Below are positions 39,974-60,020 of a stretch of 64,000 bases of DNA, one piece after another (the stretch's first letter is position 1; each line of letters begins with the position of its first letter). The stretch covers positions 411,804,001 through 411,868,000 of the forward strand of contig OZ024741.1 of NCBI GenBank assembly GCA_964016885.1, written 5' to 3'. The position numbers and the translations under genes are program-made. The notes below the pieces were generated by a model. It did no database searches, had not been told where the DNA came from, and saw only the letters and a program-made list of their open reading frames with translations. This DNA comes from Eledone cirrhosa. Its lineage: Eukaryota.

Positions 39974-40091
39974 ATTCCTTTAGGAGATGAAGACAGACTG
40001 AAGCAGTTACCTCCCTTAGTTCCGAAAACCTTCCACTTAACTGGGATTGGATTTAAAAAGACTATGTGTGATATTGTTTTATCATCTATTG
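39974..40091 (+). CDS. NOA1: NOA1 internal exon
   Basis: TTTTTCCTTGAAG|ATT ... G|GTAAAT; 118 bp, phase 0/1; IPLGDEDRLKQLPPLVPKTFHLTGIGFKKTMCDIVLSSIG. Confidence 0.9.
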
Positions 40092-40136
40092 GTAAATACT
40101 TTAATGTTCTTTTTCCAATAGATTTATATATATATA

Positions 40137-41457
40137 CTAGCAGTGTATCCCGGCGTTGCACGGATAAGAACATTGGTAATAGCACCTCCAATGAGAAACG
40201 TTTATTTGTGAGTGCCTGTTAAAAAGTCATGAAAATATACCGACAGGAAACTTGTTTTATTTGGAGAAAATTAAGAAGTTGAAAGTACAGTTTAGCTGTC
40301 TACGTGCATTGTTCATAGAAATATTGTTGAGCCCCTTCTTTTCATACTCCTCTGTTTTGGCCTATTGGAGTAAATATGAAAGAGAAAGTCACAGGTTAAG
40401 TTGGCAGAAGGTCCCAGTGTCATAGCAGTAAGGCGTAGGCTACTTACCTCAAAAGTTCATTCGCACTTTTTCCACTAAGTTACTCTTTCTCTCTATCTCT
40501 CTCGGTGCAGTCCCTTGCGATTTTCTCGCGTAGGCCTGGTGTAGATTTGCGCCCAATCCATCTGCCCGATGCACATGTCTGCTTTTAGAGGAAGGAGTGA
40601 CCAGCAGTACGTTGTTCAGTATTATTACGAAAAAGGGCAGTGGATAAGCAGTATTGGTAGAGGGTCGGCCGCCATGCTTTGCAGCAAAGAGTTACAGCCC
40701 TTTATAGTCTGAGTTCAAATCCCGCCGAGGTTAACTTTGCCTTTCATCCTTACGGGGTCGATAAAATAAAGTACCAGTAATACAATGGGATAATTGCTGG
40801 CCTTGTGCCAAAAGTAGAAACAATTATTATGAAAAGGTGTAGCAGAGAATCCCACGTGAACTAACAGCTCCGGAGGAAACTGCTTACCTCGAAGATTCAT
40901 TCGCCATCGTTCTTGTCAATGCTCCGTTTAGTTGGTATTTGTTGGTCTACAGTTAGATGAATGGTGCACAAAGGGTTAATATTTATTGGCAAGAAGTGGC
41001 AACTGGGCTCGCTTGCCTCACTTATATTATATACTAAAATAACAGATTAAAGTTTAAGCAAAGAATCGCTGCTTTCACCCTTAACGGGATCTTCTGAAAC
41101 TAAAAAAAATTAATCTGTGAACGTAGAAGTAAATATTTTGAAAAACGTTGCAACTCAAGGAAAACAGGAAGACGATATTTTGGTTCGTGAAGACATTCCC
41201 TGGCAATGAACGGAAAATAGCGAACATAATACGTCATCAATGTTTGTCATATGCTGTAATGCAAACAGCCAGACAAACTGACAGATATTATAAGGGCGCG
41301 ACGGAGATCGATAACCGGTGCCTAACACCCCTTTAACAACAGAAAATTGAAGAATAAAAGTTGCAGTTAATATCTTTAGACCGCTAGGAATATATAAATG
41401 CAAGTTTGAAGTCAATCGGAGTAGAAATGTGGATTTGTATAGACTTTGCAAAAATGA

Positions 41458-41523
<66 letters not shown>

Positions 41524-41545
41524 CAGTTTTATATTTATGTATAGA
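40137..41545 (-). mobile_element. Non-autonomous Helitron
   Basis: On the minus strand it starts A|TC at 41545, carries (TG)n near the 5' end, and ends with a GC-rich hairpin (CCGTGCAACGCCGG) followed by CTAG|T at 40137; no TSD. Confidence 0.8.
40632..40830 (+). mobile_element. tRNA-derived SINE with a Deu/Nin-like domain, nested in the Helitron
   Basis: GAGTTCAAATCC B box followed by GCCTTTCATCCTTACGGGGTCGATAAAATAAAGTACCAG and GCTGGCCTTGTGCC...AGTAGAAAC; a sister copy lies at 62420-62609. Confidence 0.75.
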
Positions 41546-41796
41546 TGAGAAAGGTTTAGATTAATGTGTGTATCTCCTTACAATGGTTTCTACTTTAGGC
41601 ACAAGGCCAACAATTTAGGGCGAGAGGAAAGTCGATTGAATTGACTCCAGTGCATTACTGGTACTTTATTTTATTGACCCAGTAATTGTTTCTGATTTAG
41701 GCAGAAAGCCAGCAATATGGTGGGTGAGGAAAGTCCACTCTGTATGCTGATCCAGTGCCACAACAACAAAAGTACCCAGTTCACCCAGTAAGGGTC

Positions 41797-43806
41797 AGAA
41801 AGAGACATAACAGGAAGGGAGAAAGAGACATAACAGGAAGGGAGAAAGAGACATAACTAGAAGGGAGAAAGAGACATAACAAGAAGGGAGAAAGAGACAT
41901 AACTGGAAGGGAGAAAGAGACATAACAGGAAGGGAGAAAGAGACATAACAGGAAGGGAGAAAGAGACATAACTAGAAGGGAGAAAGAGACATAACAGGAA
42001 GGGAGAAAGAGACATAACAGGAAGCGAGAAAGAGACATAACAGGAAGCGAGAAAGAGACATAACAGGAAGGGAGAAAGAGACATAACTGGAAGGGAGAAA
42101 GAGACATAACTGGAAGGGAGAAAGAGACATAACAGGAAGGGAGAAAGAGACATAACAGGAAGGGAGAAAGAGACATAACTGGAAGGGAGAAAGAGACATA
42201 ACAGGAAGGGAGAAAGAGACATAACAGGAAGGGAGAAAGAGACATAACTGGAAGAGAGAAAGAGACATAACTGGAAGGGAGAAAGAGACATAACAGGAAG
42301 GGAAAAAGAGACATAACTGGAAGAGAGAAAGAGACATAACTGGAAGAGAGAAAGAGACATAACTGGAAGGGAGAAAGAGACATAACAGGAAGGGAGAAAG
42401 AGACATAACTGGAAGAGAGAAAGAGACGTAACTGGAAGGGAGAAAGAGACATAGCTGGAAGGGAGAAAGAGACATAACTGGAAGGGAGAAAGAGACATAA
42501 CTGGAAGGGAGAAAGAGACATAACTGGAAGGGAGAAAGAGACATAACAGGAAGGGAGAAAGAGACATAACTGGAAGGGAGAAAGAGACATAACAGGAAGG
42601 GAGAAAGAGACATAACTGGAAGGGAGAAAGAGACATAACAGGAAGGGAGAAAGAGACATAACTGGAAGGGAGAAAAGACATAACAGGAAGGGAGAAAGAG
42701 ACATAACTGGAAGGGAGAAAGAGACATAACTGGAAGGGAGAAAGAGACATAACTGGAAGGGAGAAAGAGACATAACTGGAAGGGAGAAAGAGACATAACT
42801 GGAAGGGAGAAAGAGACATAACTGGAAGGGAGAAAGAGACATAACAGGAAGGGAGAAAGAGACATAACTGGAAGGGAGAAAGAGACATAACTGGAAGGGA
42901 GAAAGAGACATAACAGGAAGGGAGAAAGAGACATAACTGGAAGGGAGAAAGAGACATAACTGGAAGGGAGAAAGAGACATAACTGGAAGGGAGAAAGAGA
43001 CATAACTGGAAGGGAGAAAGAGACATAACAGGAAGGGAGAAAGAGACATAACTGGAAGGGAGAAAGAGACATAACAGGAAGGGAGAAAGAGACATAACTG
43101 GAAGGGAGAAAGAGACATAACAGGAAGGGAGAAAGAGACATAACTGGAAGGGAGAAAAGATATAACAGGAAGGGAGAAAGAGACATAACTGGAAGGGAGA
43201 AAGAGACATAACAGGAAGGGAGAAAGAGACATAACTGGAAGGGAGAAAGAGACATAACAGGAAGCGAGAAAGAGACATAACAGGAAGCGAGAAAGAGACA
43301 TAACAGGAAGGGAGAAGGAGACATAACTGGAAGGGAGAAAGAGACATAACTGGAAGGGAGAAAGAGACATAACTGGAAGGGAGAAAGAGACATAACAGGA
43401 AGCGAGAAAGAGACATAACTGGAAGGGAGAAAGAGACATAACTGGAAGGGAGAAAGAGACATAACAGGAAGCGAGAAAGAGACATAACTGGAAGGGAGAA
43501 AGAGACATAACAGGAAGGGAGAAAGAGACATAACAGGAAGTTAGAAAGAGACATAACAGGAAGCGAGAAAGAGACATAACTGGAAGGGAGAAAGAGACAT
43601 AACAGGAAGGGAGAAAGAGACATAACTGGAAGGGAGAAAGAGACATAACAGGAAGGGAGAAAGAGACATAACTGGAAGGGAGAAAGAGACATAACTGGAA
43701 GGGAGAAAGAGACATAACTGGAAGGGAGAAAGAGACATAACTGGAAGGGAGAAAGAGACATAACAGGAAGGGAGAAAGAGACGTAACAGGAAGCAAGAAA
43801 GAGACA
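41797..43806. repeat. 23-bp purine-rich minisatellite, left part
   Basis: Unit GAGACATAAC(A/T)GGAAG(G/C)GAGAAA. Confidence 0.97.
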
Positions 43807-45744
43807 TATAGCGAAGATACTCGTGTGTATGAATGTAACAAGGAGACATGGTTTGTGTGTATAATATTTAATTAACAATTTAACAGTATAGTTGACATGT
43901 CAATGAATAAACGAAAGAATGAAGCAAAGTTAGTAGTTACCGTTTTGATTGCCAGGCAAACGCAGGCTGGCAGAAGACGCCTGGCGAAGGCCAGGCACCG
44001 GAAGGGCTAATGAGAGGTTGAGAACTTAAAGTTGTTAGTTTTATAGGGTTCTGACCGGATGTTAGAGAAAGGGTTCTACTTCCCGTCTAGATGTTGTTAA
44101 TCTATTGGGGTTGTGAGTCACAACAAGGGAGGCCACTGCTACATAACCTCCCGCCAGAATTTTAGAATATAAAAATCGAATGAAATATGTAGCAAGTTGG
44201 CGAGAATGTTGTAACAGGCATGAAAATTACGACAAAAGAATGTTTGCAAAAATCAATGATAGATGTCAAGGTAGCTAACCGCTCTTGGCCAGAGAACGAC
44301 TGGACCTCTATCTATCCATCACCCAAAGATACAATGTAATAAAGTAAGAGAAGAGCTCAAAGTTCAAATGTACAAAATATAGTTCACAGGTGTGCAATCA
44401 CATGACAGCAGGAAAGAAAGTGTGTTCCAGAGAATGTATGCAGGTGGTTTCTGTTCTGTGGTAGATCGTGAAATTTCCAACCTCCGAATGGATTTTCTCA
44501 CAGGAAGAGTGCTGCAAAAATAAATTCTCTGGCTTGTTCTGCTGGTGAAGCTGTGTTGCTGCCTCGCGGAGTGAGCGTATTCGGTGTTTAAATTCACAGT
44601 AAAAAAAATTTTTTCAGAAAAAATGAGTTGCGCAAAGTGCTAGAAATAACAGCCGAAGTTGATGGTCGATGTTGAGAATGCGTTGACCTGGAATGGTCAA
44701 GAGGCCAGCGACCAAAGAAATAAGCATTCTGAATAAATGCGCAGTTTTCAACGGCAAATTTACGTGGTAAATTTTTAAAGCAGCAAATAGGAGAATATAG
44801 CTTAAGGCTGAAGAATCCTTGGCGAGAAACGTTATCTCTGGCGTGCGGCTATCTCTGTGAGTCGAGAATTTGTGCTGCCTACACGTGCCAATACAAGGTT
44901 AAGTTAGGTTTAAAAAAATAATATTTCTAACGCGCGAGAAAATGATAGTGCAAGTGTGAAAGTGACAATGATGAAAAAGAAAGGCTTCACTTAGCATAAT
45001 TATTGGTGTGAACTTTGAAAAAAAACTTGAACGATGAAGAAAACGATGAAAAAAAAAAGGGGGCAATGGTTCATCGAAAATAAATGTTCCTGTTGAAATG
45101 TTTTTAAAAAAAAAAATATCAAATTTCTTTTTTTTTTTTTTTTTTTTTGAAAGTGTTCGTTGTAAGAAACGAGAAACATATATATATATCGTGAAATGCG
45201 ACGGTTAGTTGATGCGTGAGAGAAAAAGTCTGTCTGAACGCGAATTTCACATGTGCGTGTGTGCGTTTCTTTGAGTATTTTCATAGTTTGTCAATAAATT
45301 TGCTGTGTATTCGTAATGTTACTCACACAACACAAGATTCTGCTATTTTTTTTTTTTCGGGGTGACCACTTATAACAATGAACGGCTGCGTGTTCGTATC
45401 ACGTCAGGGTTACCAATATAGCGAAGATACTGAGTTGTATGAATGTAACAAGGAGACATGGTTTGTGTGTATAATATTTAATCAACAATTTAACAGTATA
45501 GTTGACATGTCAAAGAAGAATGAAGCAAAGTTAGTAGTTACCGTTTTGATTGCCAGGCAAACGCAGGCTGGCAGAAGACACCTGGCGAAGGCCAGGCGCC
45601 GGAAGGGCTAATGAGAGGTTGAGAACTTAAAGTTGTTAGTTTTATAGGGTTCTGGCCGGATGTTACAGAAAGGGTTCTACTTCCCGTCTAGATGTTGTTA
45701 ATCTATTGGGGTTGTGAGTCACAACAAGGGAGGCCACTGCTACA
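43807..45744 (-). mobile_element. Non-autonomous LTR retroelement (1938 bp, non-coding interior) inserted in the 23-bp array
   Basis: Direct repeats 43807-44143 and 45417-45744. On the minus strand the LTR reads TGTAG...CTATA; PBS TGGTAACCCTGACGTGAT begins 1 nt after the 5' LTR; PPT-like GGCGGGAGG precedes the 3' LTR; 4-bp TSD GACA at 43803-43806 and 45745-45748. Confidence 0.9.
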
Positions 45745-46380
45745 GACATAACAGGAAGGGAGAAAGAGACATAACTGGAAGGGAGAAAGAGACATAACAG
45801 GAAGCGAGAAAGAGACATAACTGGAAGGGAGAAAGAGACATAACTGGAAGGGAGAAAGAGACATAACAGGAAGCGAGAAAGAGACATAACTGGAAGGGAG
45901 AAAGAGATATAACAGGAAGGGAGAAAGAGACATAACAGGAAGCGAGAAAGAGACATAACAGGAAGGGAGAAAGAGACATAACAGGAAGGGAGAAAGAGAC
46001 ATAACAGGAAGCGAGAAAGAGACATAACAGGAAGGGAGAAAGAGACATAACAGGAAGCGAGAAAGAGACATAACTGGAAGGGAGAAAGAGACATAACAGG
46101 AAGCGAGAAAGAGACATAACAGGAAGCGAGAAAGAGACATAACAGGAAGGGAGAAAGAGACATAACTGGAAGGGAGAAAGAGATATAACAGGAAGGGAGA
46201 AAGAGACATAACAGGAAGCGAGAAAGAGACATAACAGGAAGGGAGAAAGAGACATAACTGGAAGGGAGAAAGAGACATAACAGGAAGCGAGAAAGAGACA
46301 ACAGGAAGTGAGAAAGAGACATAACAGGAAGCGAGAAAGAGACAACAGGAAGTGAGAAAGAGACATAACAGGAAGGGAAC
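45745..46380. repeat. 23-bp minisatellite, right part
   Basis: Same unit as 41797-43806, resuming after the LTR element. Confidence 0.97.
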
Positions 46381-46451
46381 TCTTTAACCATCCAACCATC
46401 TCCAATGTTTTATTTTCAGGTTGATAATATCTTGTTTCTTTGTCTTTCTAG

Positions 46452-46657
46452 GTTGGGTTGGTGTAAGTACCAAAAATGACCATCACATCACATTGACAGC
46501 TTATACCCCAGGTGGGTACGGCTGCTTCAAACGACCCGCTTTGTTACCCAATGCTGTTAACCTGAAGAATAAACGTATTCGTGGCCAGCCGTATTATAGA
46601 ATGTCAAAGTGCCTTTCTCTTGTAAAACTACCTCCAATAAAACATTCACATCTGTAG
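46452..46657 (+). CDS. NOA1: NOA1 terminal coding exon
   Basis: TTTCTAG|GT, phase 1, completing the Gly codon from the previous exon; GWVGVS...LTAYTPGGYGCFKRPALLPNAVNLKNKRIRGQPYY...HL then TAG. SSxGWV and R-P-LLP--VN---KR match the NOA1 C-terminus. Confidence 0.9.
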
Positions 46658-46710
46658 TTGGTCTCTTGTAAAATATTTATATATTCAACCTTTTAACACC
46701 AAACCCAGAC

Positions 46711-48890
46711 TAATGAAAGGGTTAAACAACATAGACCAGTGTCTTACATTAGAAATATGGTAATGAAAGGGTTAAACAACATAGACAGTGTCTTACATTA
46801 GAAATATGGTAATGAAAGGGTTAAACAACATAGACAGTGTCTTACATTAGAAATATGGTAATGAAAGGGTTAAACAACATAGACAGTGTCTTACATTAGA
46901 AATATGGTAATGAAAAGGGTTAAACAACATAGACAGTGTCTTACATTAGAAATATGGTAATGAATGGGTTAAACAACATAGACAGTGTCTTATATTAGAA
47001 ATATGGTAATGAAACGGTTAAACAACAAAGACAGTGTCTTACATTAGAAATATGGTAATGAAAGGGTTAAACAACATAGACAGTGTCTTTCATTAGAAAT
47101 ATGGTAATGGAAGGGTTAAACAACATAGACAGTGTCTTTCATTAGAAATATGGTAATCAAAGGGTTAAACAAAATAGACAGTGTCTTACATTAGAAATAT
47201 GGTAATGAAAGGGTTAAACAACATAGACAGTGTCTTACATTAGAAATATGGTAATGAAAGGGTTAAACAACATAGACAGTGTCTTACATTAGAAATATGG
47301 TAATGACAGGGTTAAACAACAGACAGTGTCTTTCATTAGAAATATGGTAATGAAAGAGTTAAACAACATAGACAGTGTCTTACATTAGAAATATGGCAAT
47401 GAAAGGGTTAAACAACATAGACAGTGTCTTACATTAGAAATCATCATCATCATCACCGTTTTACGTCCGTTCTTCCATGCTAGCATGGGTTAGACGGGTT
47501 GTCCTGTTGTGGGCAGTGTCTAGTCGGCTGACCATGCCTTGCTCATACAGGAGCTGATTTGGCTTCATTTCTATAGCTGGATGCCCTTCCTAACACCAAC
47601 CTCATTTACAGTGAGTGCTTTTTCGTGGCGCCTACACGTCCACTTTACAGTGTGGGCTTGGTGCTTTTTTGCCGTGGCACCTCCACGATCACCTTGCGGG
47701 GTGGGGGGGGGGGGGCATATTGTCTATATGCTTCAGCTTGTACCCATGGGAGGTCGGGTACTCTGTATTACTGCGTGACACCAGAGGTCACGGTCGTGTG
47801 TCATTGCCTTTGAGAGGTGTAATTGGGTAAAGTCGGCTTTTATCACCTCATCCCAGCTCATCTTGGGTCTCCCCACTCCGCGGTTTCCATCGACTTCTAG
47901 TGCTCTGCACCTTTTTATGCAGCTGTCATCCTTCATACGCATCACATGTCCATACCAGCGCAACCGCCTCTCCTGCACATAGCAGTCTCTCTCTCAATTC
48001 ATTTATGCTTTGTCGTTCGCGTATATTACTATTACACATCCATCGGAGCATGCAGGCTTCGTTTCTCTCTAATCTACGTAAGTCTTCCACCTTCAGCGCC
48101 CAGGTCTCACTACCATGCAACATCGCTGTTCGGATACACGCATCATACAGTCTGCCTTTCATTCTGAGGGAGAAGCCTTTTGCAGCTAGCAGTGGTAGTA
48201 GTTCCCTAAACTTCTTCCATCCCGTTCTTACCCTAGTTATTGTACTTTCTGAACACCCACCTCCGCTGCTAATTCGGTCACCTAGGTAGCAGAAGCTGTC
48301 TACTGTTTTTACAGAGCCCTCCCAGAGATTGGTGGTACTTGTTTCCTGTGGCTGTTTGCTGCTTGCTATCCAAGCACAGTTGCTGCATGTGAAGCCTACA
48401 TTCTTAATTAAGCTTCCTGAGATCCCGCTACATCTCTTGTGTACCCACTGTTTGCATTTGGGGCAGAGAATGGAGTTCCTACCTACACCTTTCCTACATA
48501 CTGAGCAAGGCCATTTCCCTGAGGGGATCTGGGTTCTGTTTTCTAAATATGGTAATGAAAGAGTTAAACAACATAGACAGTGTCTTTCATTAGAAATATG
48601 GTAATGAAAGGGTTAAACAACATAGACAGTGTCTTACATTAGAAATATGGTAATGAAAGGGGTAAACAACATAGACAGTCTTTCATTAGAAATATGGTAA
48701 TGGAAGGGTTAAACAACATAGACAGTGTCTTACATTAGAAATATGGTAATGAAAAGGGTTAAACAACATAGACAGTGTCTTACATTAGAAATATGGTAAT
48801 GGAAGGCTTAAACAACATAGACAGTGTCTTACATTAGAAATATGGTAATGGAAGGGTTAAAGACAACATAGATAATGTCTCATTAGAAAT
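46711..48890. repeat. 49-bp minisatellite just downstream of the NOA1 stop, split by an RTE insertion
   Basis: Unit TAATGAAAGGGTTAAACAACATAGACAGTGTCTTACATTAGAAATATGG at 46711-47440 and 48545-48890. Confidence 0.95.
47441..48545 (-). mobile_element. RTE LINE 3' fragment
   Basis: KGRLYDACIRTAMLHGSETW, RLRWYGHVMRM; (CAT)n tail at 47441; inserted within the 49-bp array. Confidence 0.95.
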
Positions 48891-48892
48891 AA

Positions 48893-49318
48893 GGTAACGA
48901 AAGGTATATGTATAATGCCTGTGTGCAATGCTGCATGGTTGTGAAACATGGGCTGTGACTGCAGAGGACATGTGTAGACTGGAAAGAAATGAAGCAACCA
49001 TGTTTCTTTGGATGTGTAAATGTGAAAGAAAAGCAAAGCTCTGACAAGCTTAGAGAGAAGCTGGGTTGCTGGGGAATCCGAGATGGTGTGCAGGATAGAA
49101 AACTGCATTGGGGTGGACATGTAGTGCGCATGAAAAATGACTGATGGGTGAAGAAATGCCAGGAAATCCCAGTGGAAGGAAGCAGCAGTAGAACACAACC
49201 AAGAAAGACCTGGGCAGAGGTTGTCAGAGTGGACTTCAAATTGCTGAGACTGGCATGCGGCAAGAGTGAAGAGATGTTGTGCTGAGAAGGACCTGTCCAA
49301 CCCATGCAAGCATGATGA
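48893..49318 (+). mobile_element. Old, diverged RTE 3' fragment
   Basis: Degenerate LHGCETWAV, LERNEA and PRKTWAEVV, ending ...GGACCTGTCCAACCCATGCAAGCATGATG. Confidence 0.85.
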
Positions 49319-49692
49319 TATATACATACACACACACATATATCATCATCATCACTGTTTTCTGTCCATTTTTCCATGCTTGCATGAGTTAGATGGGTCA
49401 TCCATGTTGGGAAACAACAATTGTCAATTATAGATTGTTTTCTCTCAGCCCCTGCTGGAACAAAACGATGACGTCATCGACCATGCGCTGTTTTATGTGG
49501 CTGTTTACTTGTAAACAAACCAATTATTGATAATGTTAAGATATTAGCATAATATTATTGTTATTCACTCATGAAAACAGGTATCCACGTTAAGAGCGAA
49601 AGCAAATATATATACATATATATAAAGGTGGTAGACTGGTAACTATACCCATTTTCTCCTCTTTTCCTTTTTTTACCCTTTTTTGGCCACAT

Positions 49693-49726
49693 CTTCTGAT
49701 GAAGGACCAGTATCCGAAACGTTGAG
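49693..49726 (+). ncRNA. Minimal type I hammerhead ribozyme motif (Penelope pLTR-type remnant)
   Basis: CTT-CTGATGA-AGGA-CCAGTA-TCC-GAAA-CG-TT-GAG: intact CUGAUGA and GAAA cores, stem II GGA/TCC, stem I CTT/GAG, palindromic AACGTT in place of stem III. Confidence 0.65.
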
Positions 49727-49829
49727 GCTTTTTTCCAACTCTGCTAAACATTATACTAATATAGCTTAATTGTATCGTGTTGTTCTCTTGTTCTTATTTC
49801 AACAACACCACGTCTGTTAGTCCTACTGC

Positions 49830-49960
49830 CCATGTGGTAGAACAGGTGGTAGATCATATGGTAGAACATGTGATAGATCATGTGGTAGATCATGTGATAG
49901 ATCATGTGGTAGATTATGTGATAGATCATGGTAGAACATGTGATAGATCATGTGGTAGAA
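49830..49960. repeat. 12-bp short tandem repeat
   Basis: GATCATGTG(A/G)TA repeats. Confidence 0.85.
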
Positions 49961-50071
49961 CACAAACGTATGTCCAGCTTTATATGTGATAACTCCACAA
50001 AATGTCCATCAACAGCCTAGGTGACATAACACAGCCACACCTGCCAGTCTACCTGACACACCACACCTGTC

Positions 50072-56460: not shown

Positions 56461-56502
<42 letters not shown>

Positions 56503-56508
<6 letters not shown>

Positions 56509-59500
56509 TTAAGTCGTTTGGAAGCCTCGACAATGCAAATGGGTAAATCTCCGGGTAACAAGGTCCGGTGGTGGAGAGAGAGATGTAAATGGGTGTACGT
56601 TGAGATGCGTGGTGTGTATAAGATGTGTGAGATGTGTAGAATGAAGGGAAGAGTATAAAGGATAAAATTAAAATAACAACACAAGAGAGAGTTACCTTGG
56701 GAGAGATTTAATAGTCCCTATATATTTCGGATTCACATCCATCAACTGGGGTTTTTTTCCGGGGTGGGGGAAAAGGTTGTCTGTCGGACAAGTCCGGAAC
56801 GCGTCCTTCGTTGTTTGTTGTTTTGAATATCTGAGGTATTCGGCAGAGCGCACGTGCGCGTGAAATGGGGTCGGTCGTACAGAGGTCAGCGGCCGAATGA
56901 GGGAGTGGGATAGCGCTAGCTGTCAGTCCATTTTCTGCCTGTTTGTTAAATGTTACTCTGTGTGTGTGTGCGTGTGTTGTCTCGCTTGAGTGTGTGTGTG
57001 TGCGTGCGTGTGTTGTTGCCTTGTTCCTCTGTATTGGCAGTGAGTATGTTCGTATGGTGGAATGCTACTGTGTGTGTGTGTGTGTGTGCGTGTGTTGTCT
57101 CGTTTGCGTGTGTTGTGTGTTGTTGCATCGCTTGTTAACTTAAACCAGCCATCTCATTTCGCTTCTCTCTGATCGGTTGTTTATTTGCGGTTGCAGTCGT
57201 TTGATAAAAAGCGCTTCCTTGATACGTAACGTGCCGACGTTTCTTTCAGTCGCTAGAATTGTGACAATGGGCCTTCCGTCTTTGTTTCCGCATTTGTGTG
57301 TTTGTGAAGTATATCCGAGATGGAGTGTTTTAGCCTGATGAGTTTAGTGTCGAGTTCGTGGTTGGTGGGTGGGGGGTGGAGTGGGTTGTCGGGGTGGTAA
57401 GTGGGGAACTAGGGGTGGGTTGCGTCGGCGCTGTTATTTTCTGTGGCGCTGTTGATGGCGGTCACCCATTTAAGTTGGTAAGCGGCCCGACAAAAGTTGG
57501 CCCCACCCTCCAACCACGAACTCGACACTACACTCATCAGGCTAAAACACTCCATCTCGGATATACTTCACAAACACACACACACACGCACAACACATAA
57601 CCTCACCAAATCTCAACTCACCACTCTCTCCAACCTAAAATCGAAGAACCTCATCTATCTCCCCTCCGACTAGGGAAAAGAATTCTGCGTCATCAGCAGA
57701 GAGGCCTACAACACCCTGGCCCTCCAACACCTTGACGATGACAACCTCTACTCCAAGGTCACGGGAATCACTCCCGCGCAGATAGAAGAACACATCAACG
57801 CCGCCTGGACCAACATCTGCGACCGGCGGAAGCTCCCGAAGAAGCTGAGATACAACCTCCTCACGAGGAACAGCAGACTACCCGCCTTCTACCACCTCGT
57901 GAAAACACACAAACGGGACCCGACCTGAAAATCAGGCGCATCGTATCGAGCGTGGAGGGACCACTCTACAAAATTTCATGGCTCCTAGCCAGAATACTCA
58001 AACCCATCTTAGACACCTTGCCGGGACACGTTAACAGCTCCGAGGAGGTGTTGAAGCGCCTGCATCAAATGGATCCCGACACCAGAAGGAATAACAGATA
58101 TGCCTTCAGCCTTGATGTAGTCGCTCTCTACACCTCGGTCCCGGCACTCCCGGCCGTCAATATACTAATGGAACGCGTCCAATCCACCGACCTACACTGC
58201 TTCGGGCTCACCACCACTGACATCCACCAACTCCTATCCATCGTCGTCGACAACACCTACTTCGGATTCCTTGACCAAATATACCAACAAACCTCGGGAT
58301 TGCCCATGGGATCAAGCCTATCAGGTGTGCTAGCGATCTCTTACATGGACAACCTCGAACGCAAGACACTCAACGCTTGCCACTCCAACGCCGTAGCCTT
58401 TTTCTCAAGGTACGTGGACGATATCCTCATCCTCGCATCTTCCCAAGACACGGCGAACAGAATCTATGAGACGTTCAACAACACGGACGAGAAAATTGAC
58501 TTCAGTGTTGAATACCCCAACGAAGACGGGTCACTTGCCCTCCTCGACTTCCGAATCAACATCACGGAACAGGGAAGGATCCACTGCAACTTCTACCGAA
58601 AGGCAGCCTGCAGGGACCTATTCGTTCACTACAAGTCCGCCCTCCCTAACAGTGCCAAAAGAGGATACATCACGAACGAGATCGCGCGAATCAAAAACAG
58701 ATGCAGCGATCCCGCGAGTGGTGTCACTCATACCAAGCGATTCCTCAAGGTGCTGGAGACGAACGGGTACCCTACCTCGATCACAGACAGAATAGGAGAC
58801 ACCAGACGCAAGAGACAGAGAAGCACCCAAGGCAAGTGCTTCCTTAAAATGCCACACCTGGGCGAGAAAACCACCAACGCTGTCCGCAAGGCTATACGGA
58901 GGGAGGGCCTCGACATCCACCTGGCCCACTCGGGCCCCTCCCTGCGAAGATGCCTCTCCAGGAAACCCGAAAAATCTACTGACGCATGCTCCCTCAGAGA
59001 CTGCCTGATACGCCATGCGAACTGTTGCCTACGCACATACGTCGTGTATAAGATAGAATGTGATAGGTGCAACCAATACTACATAGGTAGCACAATTCGA
59101 CCTTTGCACATCCGGATCAAGGAACACACTAAAACCAGGGCCTCGTCTTTCCGGAAACACATAGACAAATGCGGAAACAAAGACGGAAGGCCCATTGTCA
59201 CAATTCTAGCGACTGAAAGAAACGTCGGCACGTTACGTATCAAGGAAGCGCTTTTTATCAAACGACTGCAACCGCAAATAAACAACCGATCAGAGAGAAG
59301 CGAAATGAGATGGCTGGTTTAAGTTAACAAGCGATGCAACAACACACAACACACGCACACACACACGCAAACGAGACAACTACACACACACACGCACACA
59401 CACACAGTAGCATTTCACCATACGAACATACTACACTGCCAATACAGAGGAACAAGGCAACAACACACGCACGCACACACACACACACTCAAGCGAGAGA

Positions 59501-60020
59501 ACAACACACGCACACACACACAGAGTAACATTTAACAAACAGGCAGAGAATGGACTGACAGCTAGCGCCATCCCCCTCCCTCATTCGGCCGCTGACCTCT
59601 GTACGACCGGCCCCATTTCACGCGCACGCGCGCTCTGCCGAATAGCTCAGATATTCAAAACAACAAACAGTGAAGGACGCGTTCCGGATTTGTCCGATAG
59701 ACAACCTTTTCCCCCACCCCGGAAAAAAACCCCAGTTGATGGATGTGAATCCGAAATATATAGGGACTATTAAATCTCTCCCACGGTACTCTCTCTTGTG
59801 TTGTTATTTTAATTTTATCCTTTATACTCTTCCCTTCATTCTACACATCTCACACATCTTATACACACCACGCATCTCAACGTACACCCACTTACATCTC
59901 TCTCTCCACCACCGGACCTTGTTACCCGGGAATTTACCCATTTGCATTGTCGAGGCTTCCAAACGACTTAAAGATATTTACTTATTGTTCCACAATGCTT
60001 CAAGCAAACTTCAATACTCT

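Follow-up and report, generated by a model that had tools for sequence, protein, structure and literature searches.

The stop of reverse transcriptase (RT) at m1A58 of the primer tRNA is held to be necessary if LTR elements are to complete their DNA and insert it into the genome. A locus in the genome of Eledone cirrhosa raises the question whether DNA that ran past this stop can be integrated and inherited. In the window analyzed here, a stretch of 64,000 nucleotides, the minus strand carries a 1,938-bp non-coding LTR retrotransposon in which a complement of tRNA-Trp continues past the 18-nt primer binding site (PBS), with 13 of the 14 further bases matching, and in which a second PBS lies further inside. 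A preliminary description of the locus had read this as strong-stop DNA that ran through m1A58 and was transferred onto another template, giving a chimeric element with new LTRs.

Structure and insertion site of the element

The element is inserted into a 23-nt minisatellite, the array of which is split into 41797-43808 and 45744-46378, and it is flanked by the same 4 bp at both ends (target-site duplications at 45745..45748 on the 5' side, inside the minisatellite, and 43803..43806 on the 3' side). The 5' LTR (328 nt, 45417..45744) and the 3' LTR (337 nt, 43807..44143, without the tRNA copy) are identical at 320 of 327 aligned bases. Read along the minus strand, the 5' LTR is followed by a 1-nt spacer (45416) and by the first PBS (PBS1, 45398..45415), the 18-nt complement of the tRNA-Trp 3' end with its CCA, which has family-wide mismatches at tRNA positions 72 and 67. 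Next come tRNA position 58 (45397, T on the plus strand, where the host genes have A) and 13 bases over-copied from the T-arm and part of the variable loop (tRNA positions 57 to 45; 45384..45396), all 13 of which match. They are followed by 15 bases that appear to be a re-copied LTR tip (13 nt) with the 2-nt spacer of a parent form (45369..45383), and by the second PBS (PBS2, 12 nt, 45357..45368), after which an A run follows. The internal region (44156..45356) is non-coding, with a longest stop-to-stop frame of 101 codons, and a polypurine tract (44147..44155) lies 3 nt upstream of the 3' LTR.

A 4-bp target duplication was also present in 17 of the 19 sister copies with both ends located. 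A tblastn search of 65 family sequences with five protein pieces of a coding tRNA-Trp family, described below, gave no Gag or Pol match. With its LTRs, PBS, polypurine tract and target duplication, and with no Gag/Pol, the window element belongs to the non-autonomous LTR retrotransposons, and at 1,938 bp it exceeds the TRIM size limit (<1000 bp) given in the available text of PMC10886601. ARAGORN on the window and an Rfam scan of 40000-50000 called no tRNA, which is uninformative for a copy of such short length. Compared with the LTR body, its last 25 nt (45417-45440 and 43807-43830) are far more variable, both between copies and within LTR pairs, and this variable end could bias LTR dating.

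The remainder of the window contains other repeats. Positions 1-23000 hold a long array of a 62-nt satellite, in which the GC skew is strong. An inverted repeat at 56495-59985, the arms of which are 96-98% complementary, flanks an open frame of 526 codons (57742-59322) and is likely a DNA transposon. A minus-strand frame (47926-48612) that adjoins a short interspersed repeat looks, by eye, like the 3' end of a LINE.

The tRNA-Trp copy and its distribution in the host genome

The host genome (3.0 Gb) was searched for relatives of the element; the first search yielded 1,666 candidates; scores were computed for 40 of these, and the best 30 were retrieved. Aligned to the 3' end of L038, a tRNA-Trp(CCA) gene of the host called by ARAGORN, with CCA added, positions 45384-45415 were identical at 29 of 32 bases, the mismatches being 45397 (tRNA position 58, A>T), 45406 (position 67, G>A) and 45411 (position 72, C>T). 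The match stops after tRNA position 45. PBS2 matched the tRNA-Trp end at 11 of 12 bases. The host's own genes thus match beyond 18 nt, and the resemblance to the 3' 32 nt of tRNA-Trp including the CCA, the T at position 58 and the second PBS, all noticed in the preliminary description, are borne out.

Host tRNA-Trp genes do not encode the CCA. ARAGORN called tRNA-Trp(CCA) in 26 of 30 retrieved tRNA-Trp-like loci, the other four being 5'-truncated copies. A pattern with the Trp anticodon and position 58 left open matched 68 places (63 A58, three T58, two C58), and four of the five non-A58 matches were CCA-type retrocopies; A is therefore the usual genomic base at this position. Reversed control patterns of the pattern searches gave 0 matches. 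Most tRNA-Trp gene copies are contained in two tandem clusters (G000:C4:353.39-353.49 Mb and 277.40-277.44 Mb), the larger of which consists almost entirely of a variant with A57.

All 30 of the best-matching loci had the 32-nt copy with T58 and a second PBS 47 nt further in, and the exact junction pattern was found at no fewer than 534 places, at least, in the genome. The long copy, T58 and the double PBS are therefore propagated in a family and are not peculiar to this insertion. Among the first 100 listed of the 534 junctions, 97 had T58, three C58 and none A58; matches with both PBS mismatches of the window element comprised 380 T58, three C58 and, again, no A58 (0 of 383). The two mismatches at 67 and 72, which had been put down to later decay of the window copy, are common to 380 copies and so belong to the family. 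For comparison, PBS variants of mouse ERVs are reported, in the available text, not to coincide with those positions of the PBS that are modified in the tRNA (PMC7472051). Thirteen family junctions are spaced at about 5.7 kb at G000:C14:21.37-21.46 Mb, likely as a result of tandem amplification.

Single-PBS parent form and origin of the double PBS

A search for an LTR tip directly followed by a short PBS and an A run found a single-PBS form at 83 places, 82 of them with a perfect 12-nt PBS in the same context as PBS2 of the window element. The double form equals this parent plus 47 nt, namely 32 nt of tRNA and 15 nt resembling the family's own LTR tip and spacer. Compared with the tip and spacer of 20 retrieved single-PBS copies, the 15 nt before PBS2 showed a mean identity of 11.6/15, and the mismatches fall in a patch that is variable among copies. 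Only 10 of the 13 duplicated tip bases agree with the commonest single-PBS tip, and no identical tip was present among the 83 single-PBS tips listed.

Double copies of an early kind were also recovered: in L062, L077 and L108 both PBS are perfect and T58 is already present, and the LTRs of L062 and L077 are homologous to those of the window element. In a tree of 56 internal sequences (eight of 64 rows with long branches or rearrangements, L015, L030, L073, L074, L076, L133, L139 and L150, were dropped), the 37 double copies with an altered PBS2 formed one group (SH-aLRT 100) apart from the 17 single-PBS rows. L062 and L077 were placed between the two, grouping with the single-PBS copies, and the 64-row tree agrees. 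The trees are unrooted and have no outgroup, so that the order from single to double is inferred. LTR-pair divergence had a median of 3.5% in single-PBS copies (n=14 of 20, at least 100 aligned bases being required) and of 1.5% in window-type copies (n=27 of 30; p=0.013). A separate insert on the same backbone was found in L102, with 26 nt of tRNA, A58 and a repeat of its own tip.

From these comparisons PBS2 is identified as the original PBS of the family, and the double PBS is best described as a self-duplication. A jump of strong-stop DNA onto a different element, as proposed at first, would be conceivable in that the 15-nt spacer is not identical to the present LTR tip of the window element and the present tip has a 1-nt spacer, the parent 2; a transfer between two sister RNAs of one family may have taken place. 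Yet the window family has both its LTR and its internal sequence in common with single-PBS and early double copies, the LTR tip of the single-PBS parent is of the same kind, and the spacer fits the parent's own tip. A chimera with new LTRs is not needed, because the double form is the parent plus 47 nt of tRNA and own LTR tip, and we regard that origin as extremely improbable.

A young group with perfect PBS1 and T58 nests among mismatched copies, as repair of PBS1 from the tRNA might produce, but an AU test did not reject a tree with the mismatched copies together (p=0.15).

Position 58 in independent over-copies

Since T58 in the window family represents one historical event, independent junctions are required to judge it. 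The over-copies sought were CCA-ended tRNA-Trp complements running past 18 nt. Exact matches numbered 141 (53 without and 88 with T58, all but four of the 88 belonging to the window family), and a longer pattern with one mismatch allowed gave 32 further dispersed matches. Merging of shared junctions resulted in 43 independent junctions; left out were gene-cluster fragments without CCA (L037, L050, L055), a sub-lineage of the window family (L063), the coding family (L064) and repeat members of shared junctions (L106; L156, L159, L173 and L174; L175; one arm of L119). An LTR upstream was shown for part of the 43 junctions, and many share LTR-like upstream sequence.

Position 58 was A in 30 of the 43 junctions, C in six, T in five and G in two. 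Changes at 58 (13/43) exceeded a background of 21/509 (4%) at copy positions 27-50 (p=1.8e-7), which was taken from 42 junctions and includes differences between tRNA gene variants. Regarding the exact-pattern subset, 8/33 were changed (p=1.4e-4), and after exclusion of the most error-rich LTR family 7/36 (p=1.3e-3). Transversions accounted for 11 of the 13 changes at 58 versus seven of 24 elsewhere (p=0.002). Under an equal-treatment search, 11 of 32 dispersed copies but two of 68 gene-type matches differed at 58 (p=4e-5), the gene-type matches being classed mostly by gene-cluster position, with some of them retrieved. Position 58 lies outside CpG. At other positions, junctions changed at 58 had slightly more mismatches, 2.9%, than unchanged ones, 1.7% (p=0.21), and age does not clearly confound the excess. 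The changes are unevenly spread, with six of seven junctions changed in one LTR family and none of five in a group with near-identical LTRs (L091, L099, L101, L117, L155); four of the five T58 junctions, shared-junction members aside, belong to the window family or to one other LTR family.

RT is reported to read through m1A with substantial misincorporation (PMC4787781). It is very likely that the copy originated by read-through past position 58 of the primer tRNA, and the excess at this position in independent junctions suggests that T58 is likely a misincorporation opposite m1A58, as the preliminary description had supposed. The over-copy could also be real and its T58 an ordinary point mutation of the founder, like the changes at 67 and 72: two other changes did become fixed in the same 32 nt, and 30 of 43 over-copies are faithful at 58. 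The copies with perfect PBS (L062, L077, L108) show instead that T58 predates the changes at 67 and 72, and its occurrence in five of 43 junctions stands against seven background transversions in about 500 positions, which makes an ordinary mutation improbable.

Two shared-junction groups are mixed at position 58, namely L107, L156, L159, L173 and L174 (three A58, two T58) and L110 with L175 (G58, T58). In such groups the long complements may let over-extended DNA be reused, by which position 58 would be rewritten. The window family shows no such refreshing of position 58, which argues against routine use of over-extended strong-stop DNA.

Ends of the tRNA copies and jumps to the LTR tip

The copies in the 43 junctions end at 26-35 nt (12), 36-42 nt (22), 47-50 nt (eight) and 68 nt (one), with none at 43-46 nt. 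Within the exact-pattern subset, 18 of 33 ends lie in a single span of 7 nt (p=0.0005 compared with stops at a constant rate). The end groups fall around G37 and just before G26, and we take tRNA-Trp to carry m1G37 and a methylated G26. Both sites are named for tRNAs in general in the main text of PMC8062790, which does not mention Trp there. Cleavage in the anticodon loop would equally account for the first end group, and the end of the window family at position 45 is unexplained by the G37 and G26 sites.

These ends bear on the idea that the primer was a variant or unmodified tRNA-Trp, for example one derived from a gene copy with T58 or the 3' half of a tRNA, in which case no methyl block existed and the ends mark cleavage instead of modification. 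Two host gene copies do have T58 (L120, L176), and 22 of the 43 ends, at 36-42 nt, extend across the anticodon loop and its 3' side as those of tRNA halves would. Neither gene matches the copy of the family, since L120 carries A57 and L176 deviates both in the anticodon loop and at position 49. Moreover, C58 is as common as T58 among over-copies with no C58 gene among the 68 gene-type matches, and the second end group (47-50 nt, 8/43) lies beyond the anticodon. Such a primer is accordingly rated highly improbable, and read-through of a modified tRNA is preferred.

Jumps back to the element's own tip recur in other LTR families. In L087, L092 and L170 the element's own LTR tip is repeated exactly over 12-24 nt behind the tRNA copy (with 2-3 bases of overlap), and flanking DNA comes next. 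Counting the window family, such a jump (exact repeat of at least 8 nt) was present in four of 43 junctions versus 1.8% of mixed pairs (p=0.007), and its occurrence in three other LTR families means that the window family fits a recurring accident. Jumps into the LTR interior were found in L093 and L099. L032 and L119 (400-520) are fold-backs, in which LTR tip and tRNA copy are fused with the same LTR's reverse strand. L171 carries a 68-nt CCA-ended copy, nearly a whole tRNA-Trp, with C58 after an LTR-like tip; copies of this kind could be miscalled as tRNA genes.

Probable use of the two priming sites

In normal copies the 3' LTR ends without the insert, i.e., before PBS1 (17 of the 19 copies tested for target duplication), from which it follows that the usual primer is placed at PBS1, by inference the main priming site. 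A pattern requiring the duplicated tip and, after it, a base other than A matched 13 places: at seven another PBS1-type unit comes next, one has a shorter spacer and five continue into flanking DNA. The latter five are insertions ending at the duplicated tip (two solo LTRs and three 3' LTRs). Four of them have a 4-bp target duplication around the longer LTR; the 5' end of the fifth was not located. All five carry family PBS mismatches (both in four, one in the fifth), which indicates that this stretch was copied from the element and not from the tRNA. Occasional priming at PBS2 would be the simplest cause of the five insertions. PBS2-type ends make up about 1% of junction copies, a lower bound because the pattern misses flanks beginning with A.

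Tandem units of PBS1 and LTR tip (46-47 nt each), two to four in number, were seen in L073, L076, L128, L177-L179, L182 and L188, and likely come from misaligned strand transfer between both tips.

A coding tRNA-Trp family with a long complement

One coding family has a 27-29-nt tRNA-Trp complement, with A58 in 18 of 18 copies. Its LTR pairs measure 483-487 nt, and it encodes a DUF7041 Gag, protease, RT, RNase H and integrase in gypsy domain order. A CHCC Gag motif was found in this family (L124), while the window element has no Gag. CHCC, a tRNA-Trp PBS and a 4-bp target duplication are given for the CsRn1 clade in the available parts of PMC2582038. At the DNA level the window element matches the coding family only over about 40 nt around the PBS (tip and PBS), and there is no protein match; the coding family shows the type of enzyme, not the partner itself.

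Long complements in several families could mean that they are kept by selection, whatever their origin, as an extended primer-pairing site like the primer over-extension sequence of lentiviruses. There are at least four multi-copy groups of this kind, namely the window family, the coding family (27-29 nt, 18 copies), one with 40 nt (five copies) and one with 33 nt (two copies), and the double form outnumbers the single one by 534 to 83 (exact-pattern counts obtained with different patterns). The commonest subfamily, by contrast, has two PBS mismatches and T58 fixed, so that exact pairing has not been kept, and RNA of the double-PBS region folds no better than shuffles (z 0.12). Selection for longer pairing is therefore judged unlikely as the explanation of the long copy.

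Proposed mechanism and implications

The window element is one of a family in which, with good confidence, the 47-nt insert likely arose a single time through read-through of m1A58, copying of 32 tRNA bases and a jump to the element's own tip. The RT of a coding partner, likely a CsRn1-like Ty3/gypsy element, would have copied the tRNA while this was attached to the minus strand, placed dA opposite m1A58 and continued to position 45. The strand would then have returned to the template, some 15 nt before the junction with the primer, copied LTR tip and PBS a second time, and been completed and integrated. The new first PBS would have become the usual priming site. Since the PBS, as in Ty1/Ty3, is not as a rule renewed from the tRNA, T58 and the two later PBS changes would have passed to hundreds of copies. 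The old PBS would prime now and then, producing longer LTRs that contain the tRNA copy.

More broadly, we lean towards the view that animal genome assemblies record primer-tRNA modification in vivo, as wrong bases at m1A58 and as ends at G37 and G26, that over-extended products need not be dead ends, one of them having founded a family of more than 500 copies with two working priming sites, and that the tRNA copy becomes part of the LTR when the inner site primes. If true, inner-site priming is a route to LTRs containing tRNA sequence. Products past m1A58 appear to have been integrated dozens of times in this genome, one of them giving rise to a large family. Should this reading hold, DNA alone could serve to trace, one family at a time, tRNA modifications and past error habits of RT in animals without tRNA data. 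Over-copying would explain annotations of over-long or double PBS, and it would be one way in which LTR ends and the position of the PBS change.

Comparison with known systems

Over-extension itself is known biochemically, and the element family is best explained as such a reverse-transcription by-product, preserved and propagated. In a literature search that covered older and subscription papers thinly, integrated over-copies with a position-58 signature were not found described.

The closest likeness is to HIV-1 and other lentiviruses. Retroviral RT is stopped by m1A58 (PMC8599865), and it can copy the primer tRNA past this base in minor over-extended products that stop at later modified bases (55, 54, 37); in lentiviruses a primer over-extension sequence, complementary to the tRNA and adjacent to the PBS, can make such products usable (PMC13191261, PMC8599865). 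In the available text these products are transient, and those that run beyond position 54 are said to be incapable of integration (PMC8599865), whereas in the window family a copy to position 45, with a wrong base at 58, was integrated and is present in hundreds of copies.

The yeast elements Ty1 and Ty3 share with the Eledone elements a short PBS, a plus strand that enters the tRNA, and a PBS that descends from the element instead of the tRNA (PMC5371799; for the last point also PMC7472051). According to the available parts of PMC5371799, 12 nt are copied there and the strong-stop DNA is a dead end, whereas the Eledone over-copies comprise 26-68 nt and are integrated.

The CsRn1 clade (Ty3/gypsy) resembles the window element in its tRNA-Trp PBS and 4-bp target duplication, and no over-long or double PBS is described for it in the available text (PMC2582038). 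The window element differs in being non-coding, so that only its ends suggest clade membership.

Helenus TRIMs are likewise non-autonomous LTR elements with tRNA-derived sequence, and the animal families have 4-bp target duplications; their tRNA-like promoter, with A and B boxes, is situated inside the LTRs and is, in the text available, unrelated to the PBS (PMC10886601). In the window element, of 1.9 kb, the copy is the primer's own 3' end (positions 76-45), without an A box, and it follows the 5' LTR and is missing from the 3' one.

Finally, Drosophila Gypsy also has two sites for the same primer (tRNA-Lys,2). They lie at opposite ends of its genome and, as far as the available text goes, only the 5' site is needed (PMC1635307), whereas the two sites of the window element are separated by 47 nt, and LTR ends appear to be set by both.
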